Shown here: piece after piece, positions 34,479 to 35,529 of the stretch | Position numbering within the stretch: the first letter of the stretch is position 1 | Layout: the number at the start of each line of letters is the position of its first letter | NCBI RefSeq assembly: GCF_988243305.1 | Contig: NZ_OZ547136.1 | Length of the DNA: 64,000 bases | Direction: 5' to 3' (one strand) | The notes under the pieces: model-generated | What the model was told of the DNA's origin: nothing | Seen by the model: only the letters and a program-made list of their open reading frames with translations | Databases searched by the model: none | Program-made: the position numbers and the translations under genes

Positions 34479-34808
34479 TCAGTAGTGGCTGCGGGTCATC
34501 AGGCCGGTTGCCCGGCGGGCCCGGAGAATATCAATGCTGTTGATTAACTGCGACGGGGCTCCTGCGCTGAATCCCGGCTGGTCAGTTCGTACCAGCGCGT
34601 ATTTTTCAACGAGAAAGTTCACCGCATCACACAGTGAAATCCCTGCCTCAATATGCTGCTCAATCACACGTTCATCAGCGAACGGTGTGTCATTCAGCGT
34701 GAGGCCATAGTGCTGGTCCAGCAGTCGGGTGAGCAGTGTCTGCCAGATGGTGACGGGAGACGGGCAGCCCGATGCCTCCCGTACGTGAGTGTCGGGTAAT
34801 GTATTCAT
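34479..34808 (-). CDS. CbtA/YeeV/YpjF-family type IV toxin (cytoskeleton-binding)
   Basis: ATG 34808 ([56 protein letters not shown]...); slightly shorter C-terminus than remembered K-12 homologues. Confidence 0.85.
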
Positions 34809-34854
34809 CTTAAGTTCTCTGTAACAGGTGGTGATAAAGGGGAGATATCCGGGG

Positions 34855-35232
34855 TTATACGGTGATTGTGGGCGCTGCCGGTGTCGGATAAACAGCCAGA
34901 TAAACGTAACCACAACTGCCAAGGGTATCGGCTTCGCAGGTCAGCCCTTTCGCATACAGTGTGACGGTATGCTGATGACGGGGATTCAGTTCACCGCCGG
35001 TGAGCATGAGTTCCAGTTGTTTCATCAGCAACGGAAAGGCCTGGTCCAGATGGTACGCATCCGCGTCGCTGAACCGGCCTCTGATACCGGCGCGGTCGGC
35101 AAGGTAATGCAGGCGGTTACCCTCCTGTACCAGTCGGGCCCCGAAACAGGGCGTCACGGTGCAGGGCCCCCCCCACCAGGGGCGGTCGTGATTGTCGTCG
35201 GGATGCGTTGTCCCGGGGAGTGTGTCTGACAC
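34855..35232 (-). CDS. CbeA/YeeU/YfjZ-family type IV antitoxin
   Basis: 125 aa [50 protein letters not shown]... Confidence 0.85.
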
Positions 35233-35307
35233 GATAAAGTCCTCACAAAAAATCGGTTAAGAATGGTCCGGTGGTGGCGATAATGCTGCTCATCAGAATG
35301 CCCTGAT

Positions 35308-35529
35308 TCAGTTCAGGGTGACGCTCATCAGCCGGACATACGGGCCAAAACTGTCCTTATGGCGTTCAGCAAACACGGCCAGCACTCCGGGAATATCCTG
35401 CACTTCACGACCGGTATACGCCCCGGCACTGCCGTGCCAGCGGTACTTACCGGTGCAGAACGGAAAAAGACGGGATGCCGGATGCTGTTGGTGAATACGC
35501 ATGGCTTCACCACGGGTGATGATTTTCAT
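35308..35529 (-). CDS. DUF987 protein (YeeT/YpjJ family)
   Basis: 73 aa MKIITRGEAMRIHQQHPASRLFPFCTGKYRWHG... Confidence 0.85.
   Translation of the reverse strand: MKIITRGEAMRIHQQHPASRLFPFCTGKYRWHGSAGAYTGREVQDIPGVLAVFAERHKDSFGPYVRLMSVTLN

Follow-up and report, generated by a model that had tools for sequence, protein, structure and literature searches.

The locus examined here raises the question as to how a CbtA-type toxin gene came to end sixteen residues short of its own full-length allele, and whether the product is still a toxin. Positions 34479-35529 of the window (the whole stretch of DNA analyzed, 64,000 nucleotides) are, according to the ORF list of the window, exactly occupied by three minus-strand open reading frames. 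Our best explanation for this locus as a whole, which we hold at a probability of about 0.8, is a CP4-44-type module with a nonsense-truncated toxin that would still be neutralizable by CbeA and directed at FtsZ.

Identity of the three-gene module

The three proteins match their Pfam families with E-values between 3e-38 and 8e-61 (Table 1), which confirms the first-pass annotation in its assignment of a CbtA-like toxin, a CbeA-like antitoxin, and a DUF987 partner. The toxin scores 203 bits against PF06755, with a cut-off of 25. Its reading frame begins at an upstream TTG in the mechanical ORF list; the ATG at 34808 is the homologous start, as annotated in relatives, and the corresponding stop is the TGA at 34479-34481. 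In a sequence search of the PDB, the antitoxin matches the solved YeeU structures 2inw (4.6e-83) and 2h28 (6.2e-77), as well as 2jn7 and 2ea9, which are also among the solved YeeU/YfjZ structures. NCBIfam returned zero matches for the toxin, the antitoxin, and the DUF987 protein. Plus-strand antisense ORFs (e.g. 34828-35229) are wholly covered by minus-strand genes with family matches and were treated as spurious. No second copy of the module was found within the window.

Table 1. Features of the module and of the surrounding island block, in order of position
Feature	Position	Strand	Evidence or location
DUF4942 gene, 282 aa, last gene of the block	32796..33644	-	PF13708 E = 2.5e-68
Terminator-like hairpin after the 65-aa gene	33701-33675	-	terminator scan
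Small 65-aa gene, DUF957 by annotation in relatives (BR1220, AR_0017; PGAP)	33729..33926	-	
DUF5983 gene (full-length YeeW-like), 162 aa	33946..34434	-	PF25638 E = 8e-32; PF19419 E = 3e-22
Orphaned toxin tail: 15 intact codons TVNDIILGKHPEAKQ plus ancestral TGA	34431..34478	-	read-through translation; identical DNA in BR1220
Premature TGA stop at codon 110 (AGA, Arg, to TGA); changed base 34481	34479..34481	-	DNA alignment with BR1220
CbtA/YeeV-family toxin gene, 109-aa allele	34479..34808	-	PF06755 E = 8.3e-61, profile 1-109 of 112
CbeA/YeeU-family type IV antitoxin gene, 125 aa, GTG start	34855..35232	-	PF06154 E = 2.2e-53; 94% identity to K-12 CbeA
DUF987 (YeeT-like) gene, 73 aa	35308..35529	-	PF06174 E = 3.3e-38, full profile; 96% identity to K-12 YeeT
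RadC-like JAB-domain gene (YeeS/YkfG/LfgB-like)	35598..36089	-	directly upstream of DUF987; PF04002 E = 5.3e-45; TIGR00608 E = 4.9e-44
Antirestriction-family gene (YfjX/YafX-like), 157 aa from the start annotated in relatives	36090..36635	-	PF03230 E = 3e-37
DUF932 gene (YfjQ/YafZ-like), 273 aa, block head	36902..37723	-	PF06067 E = 7.2e-52
IS1 element (InsA 91 aa, InsB 167 aa ORFs)	38562-39259		just past the DUF905/DUF932 block end

The locus carries every sequence-testable mark of the CbtA/CbeA family. Besides the PF06755 match on the toxin and the PF06154 and YeeU-structure matches on the antitoxin, these marks include the arrangement of the genes, with the antitoxin directly upstream of the toxin on the same strand, DUF987 before it, and a CP4-like island block around them. 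The FtsZ-contact residue F65 is also present in the toxin and is invariant in a five-sequence alignment that includes CbtA, YpjF, and YkfI. At position 15, where K-12 CbtA has the MreB-contact residue Arg, the window toxin has Cys. Since R15 varies within the family and YpjF can bind MreB without it, we do not count this residue as a mark of membership.

The first-pass annotation likened the order DUF987, antitoxin, toxin to two K-12 arrangements, yeeT-yeeU-yeeV and ypjJ-yfjZ-ypjF. The order and the spacing, with intergenic gaps of 75 and 46 bp, are indeed those of the K-12 loci. The same succession is found in yeeT-cbeA-cbtA, ypjJ-yfjZ-ypjF, and ykfH-yafW-ykfI of K-12, each preceded by a RadC-like gene, and also in E. 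coli BR1220 and in the genome AR_0017. Sequence identity, on the other hand, points to the yeeTUV type. Relative to yeeT-cbeA(yeeU)-cbtA(yeeV) of CP4-44, in which the same families appear in the same succession, flanked upstream by yeeS (RadC) and downstream by yeeW (DUF5983), the antitoxin is 94%, the DUF987 protein 96%, and the toxin 84% identical, and both toxins contain F65. CP4-57 (ypjJ-yfjZ-ypjF) and CP4-6 (ykfH-yafW-ykfI) present the same families in the same order, but the window toxin is only 65% identical to YpjF and 61% to YkfI. Judged by these identities, the locus is a CP4-44-type (yeeTUV) yeeT-cbeA-cbtA module and not one of the ypjJ-yfjZ-ypjF type. It differs from its K-12 counterpart in two further respects: the yeeW coding sequence of K-12 spans only 195 nt (~64 aa), whereas the DUF5983 gene of the window is full length, and the island lies against a cut ulaE instead of at the CP4-44 site. 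The module is of a known kind, routinely annotated and nearly ubiquitous in E. coli; its sole unusual element is a rare point-nonsense allele of the toxin.

Origin of the short toxin

Compared with the K-12 homologues, the toxin (109 aa) ends early with respect to CbtA (124 aa) and YkfI (113 aa), as the first-pass annotation had stated, but not with respect to YpjF, which is also 109 residues long. The shortfall was described there as a few residues, which is an underestimate: relative to its own full-length allele of 125 residues, the toxin lacks sixteen (R110-Q125). The alignment to YeeV, YkfI, and YpjF proposed at that stage showed a C-terminus that is not full length, and a toxin-antitoxin pair that is not identical to a characterized copy (84% and 94%).

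The full-length allele is found in E. coli BR1220, the closest complete genome, with 99.8% identity over 1251 bp. There, the toxin (WP_001094439.1) has 125 residues and the antitoxin (WP_024183872.1) is annotated as cbeA. Across 34479-35529, the DNA of BR1220 and of the window is 100% identical except for one base at plus-strand position 34481. By DNA alignment, this difference changes codon 110 from TAC-AGA-ACG in BR1220 to TAC-TGA-ACG in the window, and residues 1-109 of the two toxins are identical. The ancestral stop overlaps the start of the DUF5983 gene as ATGA, so that the two coding sequences in BR1220 share 4 nt, and the tail region holds a GGAGG Shine-Dalgarno sequence for DUF5983. 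In the window, the toxin stop has moved 48 nt upstream of this overlap and is now located 44 nt before the DUF5983 start.

Long-form toxins of the YeeV clade, 124-125 residues in total, are characterized by a tail of ~16 residues with the pattern Y-[RK]-x-V-x-x-I-x-x-G-K after a TGL motif. The ancestral 125-residue allele has the same long tail and the same ATGA overlap as the CP4-44 copy. The window protein ends at Y109 and, with its stop at codon 110, lacks the segment RTVNDIILGKHPEAKQ. Going by these features, the gene is a member of the long-form (YeeV) clade by descent, with a product devoid of the long-form tail. Since the tail codons and the old TGA are unchanged and in frame, and since BR1220 is otherwise identical, we conclude that a long-form gene recently acquired a nonsense mutation and that the short toxin is the result. 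In agreement with such an origin, not all of the closest relatives that share its flanks terminate at codon 109. YpjF and YkfI resemble the window toxin in having Cys15 and no long tail, but in their clade the short end is the native state.

Conservation and predicted structure of the lost tail

Among 2456 database relatives, the 125-residue form predominates among the matches listed, and it reaches Klebsiella, Enterobacter, and Kluyvera at 66-70% identity. We aligned 25 sequences, of which 23 are long-form toxins from Escherichia, Klebsiella, Enterobacter, and Kluyvera. Within these 23, residues Y109, V112, I115, G118, and K119 are at least 90% conserved, and position 110 is similarly constant as Arg or Lys. 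The mean pairwise identity of the tail (residues 110-120) is 0.67, as compared to 0.50 for the variable N-terminus (1-16), 0.83 for core residues 17-76, and 0.87 for core residues 91-109.

An exhaustive search for representatives at 50% identity afforded only 230 clusters, many of which are fragments, and we therefore regard the toxin family as narrow. Of the representatives that we judged near-complete, eight contain Y-[RKQ]-x-[VLI]-x-x-[IAVT]-x-x-G, in this comparison with identities as low as ~40%; overall, the motif can still be made out at about 35-58% identity. Approximately ten others end shortly after the TGL motif, like YpjF and YkfI. CbtA toxins come in two architectures: a long form with a conserved C-terminal motif in a predicted fifth helix, and a short form represented by YpjF, YkfI, and the Erwinia protein. 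Shorter database entries are mostly N-terminal partials that retain the tail, together with a few independent tail losses, frameshifts, and DUF5983 fusions.

The 3' end of the toxin gene is a recurrent site of lesions in public records, which include tails shifted out of frame (...GSIRRRNNETGPD...), premature stops, and in-frame fusions to DUF5983 or DUF987. The names in such records are often swapped: members of the toxin cluster appear as "YeeU family antitoxin", and some entries for the antitoxin as "toxin CbtA".

A sequence search of the PDB found no structure of the toxin. An AlphaFold2 model based on an alignment of 50 sequences contains five helices (mean pLDDT 85.1, pTM 0.73). This model supersedes a first run with the 25-sequence alignment, which was too weak (pLDDT 66.7). 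The predicted fifth helix comprises residues 106-116 with a pLDDT of 81-88 for the block, and it is cut by the stop at codon 110. Foldseek detected no fold relative of the model in the PDB (best E = 3.8, chance matches). The conservation within the clade and the confident prediction of this helix suggest that the tail is not junk, and that its loss could destabilize or inactivate the toxin.

Likely activity of the 109-residue toxin

The activity of the K-12 toxins is well described. CbtA blocks cell division through FtsZ and cell elongation through MreB. CbtA, YpjF, and YkfI are toxic, give rise to lemon-shaped cells, and bind the H6/H7 loop of FtsZ via a surface that includes F65; CbtA and YpjF also bind the flat face of MreB (PMC5624674). 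The two activities of CbtA are separable, in that the F65S mutation abolishes the interaction with FtsZ, and R15C weakens that with MreB (PMC5624674). According to Masuda 2012, as related in PMC5624674, CbeA stabilizes FtsZ and MreB bundles instead of binding the toxin, which defines the type IV mode. From the 94% identity to K-12 CbeA, we infer that the antitoxin of the window acts in this mode. The three K-12 antitoxins cross-protect against paralogous toxins (PMC5371832). In CP4-6, the toxin is not neutralized by the three genes that precede yafW-ykfI, among them the DUF987 gene ykfH, and the operon is autoregulated by neither toxin nor antitoxin (PMC5371832).

In the window, a single recent AGA to TGA change at codon 110 removed R110-Q125 and cut the predicted fifth helix; the Pfam core, F65, and the antitoxin are intact. 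The 109-residue product would still be an FtsZ-directed toxin that is neutralized by CbeA, comparable in this to YpjF and YkfI, which are short by nature. Its potency may be reduced, or its MreB or stability properties changed. The early end may, as the first-pass annotation suggested, alter activity, although YpjF, equally short by nature, is toxic. Translation of DUF5983 would start from the GGAGG located 7 nt before the ATG of this gene, and not via the ancestral stop-start overlap. Any translational coupling that arose from this overlap would be lost, and the GGAGG should still allow independent initiation.

Because the Pfam core and F65 are intact and natural toxins of 106-113 residues are active, the 109-residue product is probably still toxic. 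By analogy to these short homologues, we consider toxicity upon overexpression to have somewhat better than even odds. YpjF and YkfI have no tail and yet are toxic (PMC5624674, PMC5371832), and the 106-residue CbtA of E. amylovora is toxic in its own host, where it causes elongation only (PMC6521040). CbtA also tolerates a C-terminal GFP fusion (PMC5624674).

It is possible, though we doubt it, that the truncated toxin is inactive or unstable, and that the decaying pair leaves an orphan CbeA able to cross-neutralize paralogous toxins. Such an outcome would be in line with a stop that deletes the motif conserved in the clade together with over half of a helix predicted with confidence. One copy would be dispensable because E. 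coli genomes carry a median of three loci, and the cross-protection among the K-12 antitoxins (PMC5371832) would leave a use for the remaining CbeA. Other tail-damaged alleles in the databases, with early stops, frameshifts, or DUF5983 fusions, also fit this description. However, the toxin retains the whole Pfam core (1-109 of 112) along with F65, and the natural toxins of 106-113 residues are active. That the module contains a single lesion and is 100% identical to the intact copy elsewhere shows that the lesion is young; it is silent on loss of function.

An altered target balance is a sub-case of continued toxicity and appears quite unlikely to us. In this scenario, loss of the tail spares the action on one target, most likely FtsZ, with filaments as the outcome, and abolishes or weakens that on MreB, which would make the toxin a natural counterpart of the R15C and F65S variants. 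The separability of the two activities of CbtA (PMC5624674) makes such an outcome conceivable, and the window toxin already contains Cys15, which, when placed at this position of CbtA, weakens its binding to MreB. The short CbtA of E. amylovora provides a case of elongation only (PMC6521040). YpjF speaks against this scenario: this protein has no tail and has C15, yet it binds MreB and produces lemon-shaped cells (PMC5624674). Furthermore, no determinant has been mapped in the tail. In the work of Tan et al. (2011), C-terminal deletions of YeeV reportedly changed the phenotype from lemon-shaped to elongated cells, which would fit this scenario and would also count against full activity of the window toxin.

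More generally, the conserved C-terminal helix or tail might be a functional determinant, for example of MreB inhibition, stability, or CbeA responsiveness, and the nonsense allele a variant, attenuated or with its functions separated, that has survived in a commensal lineage of E. coli; this idea we rate as unlikely. We retain the reading of a truncated toxin that probably still acts on FtsZ under the control of CbeA.

Distribution of the allele

In the public protein collection, the exact 109-residue toxin bears the name "TA system toxin CbtA family protein"; gene calls place it on 23 contigs. Eight places of this allele are listed, in seven NCBI assemblies and one Hadza gut metagenome. Assemblies with the allele are GCA_016655725.1, GCA_016693835.1, GCA_036531575.1, GCA_012528715.1, GCA_029997695.1, GCA_047680475.1, and GCA_002229375.1. 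All eight show the same neighbors and the same flank from the ula operon (ulaA-D). Over 3.5-5.7 kb, the window is 100% identical to three of these loci and 99.86-99.98% identical to the other five. Since the listed loci match the window at 99.86-100% in the same context, we can exclude a sequencing error and assign the allele to one island lineage.

The module itself is common. A megablast search with a 1251-base query detected sequence similar to the segment in 4926 of the 5426 complete E. coli genomes, with a median of three places per genome. The full-length toxin protein occurs on 340 contigs and the exact DUF987 protein on 410. By comparison, a 61-mer centered on the premature stop found a 100% match in none of the 5426 complete genomes. 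The 109-residue allele is a real but rare natural variant.

Although the early stop rests on one base that differs from BR1220, and YpjF also has 109 residues, we reject both a sequencing or assembly error and a native YpjF-like length as virtually without probability: the 23 contigs with the exact protein come from independent assemblies and a metagenome, the greater identity to CbtA than to YpjF or YkfI places the toxin in the long-form YeeV clade, and the alignment with BR1220 shows 15 tail codons that follow the stop in frame and are identical to those of the intact allele.

The island and its insertion site

Along the minus strand, the genes around the module are arranged in the order DUF932, a small hypothetical gene, antirestriction, RadC, DUF987, CbeA, CbtA, DUF5983, DUF957, the hairpin, and DUF4942. 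The module is placed in a conserved accessory block of a CP4-like integrative island. In the region of the DUF957 gene, a longer ORF of 144 aa is without a Pfam match at E <= 0.001. The terminator scan found 18 terminator-like hairpins in comparison to 5.6 expected from shuffled sequence, and only the one at 33701-33675 was used. Promoter-like sites were fewer than in shuffled controls, and a repeat search found only short two-copy matches that we judged to be due to chance.

The ula operon (ulaR, ulaG, ulaABCD, ~27-32.5 kb) is broken at the island junction. From its start at 32535 (MLSKQIPLGIYEKALPAG), ulaE runs for ~18 codons and ends near 32588, at the border of the AT-rich island DNA. This cut may affect the use of L-ascorbate. 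The same junction of ulaD and truncated ulaE with DUF4942 is present in the complete genome AR_0017 and, according to feature lists, in TB06053, NCTC9082, and an ST69 strain. The island allele of AR_0017 differs (92-96% identity), and its CbtA is full length. At 1926-2345, three tandem tRNA-Gly(GCC) genes are the only Rfam matches in the window. We take this trio to be glyVXY, as mapped in K-12, an assignment that would agree with the neighboring aidB/ula region.

From DUF4942 onward (32813-64000), the island DNA matches BR1220 at ~98-99%. Identity to BR1220 is mosaic: it amounts to 99.8% in the toxin-antitoxin genes and to 96.8% for the 5.4-kb block. Since the block of BR1220 adjoins setC/yicL and that of the window adjoins ulaD, near-identical island modules reside at different chromosomal sites. 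The relative position of the IS1 element equals that of IS1A in BR1220. Past this element, at ~39.4-45 kb (offset from BR1220), the annotation of BR1220 indicates a patatin-like phospholipase, an RdcB-family diguanylate-cyclase regulator, and a dynamin-family GTPase, followed further along the island by IS66, an MFS transporter, and N-acetylneuraminate epimerase.

Work on related proteins extends to functions of a different kind. Translocation via the type IV secretion system of the F plasmid has been reported for the antitoxins CbeA, YagB, and YfjZ (PMC11288057). The K-12 RadC-like protein YfjY, now LfgB, is a protease that cleaves MqsA (PMC10846083). These reports hint at roles of the conserved island block beyond those of a classical toxin-antitoxin pair.

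Conclusions

As a discovery, this locus has little value: sequence similar to the module occurs in most complete E. coli genomes, and the K-12 copies have already revealed the mechanism. The truncation is a marker of a single island lineage. The allele provides a natural test as to whether the clade-conserved C-terminal helix of long-form CbtA matters for toxicity or for the choice of target.
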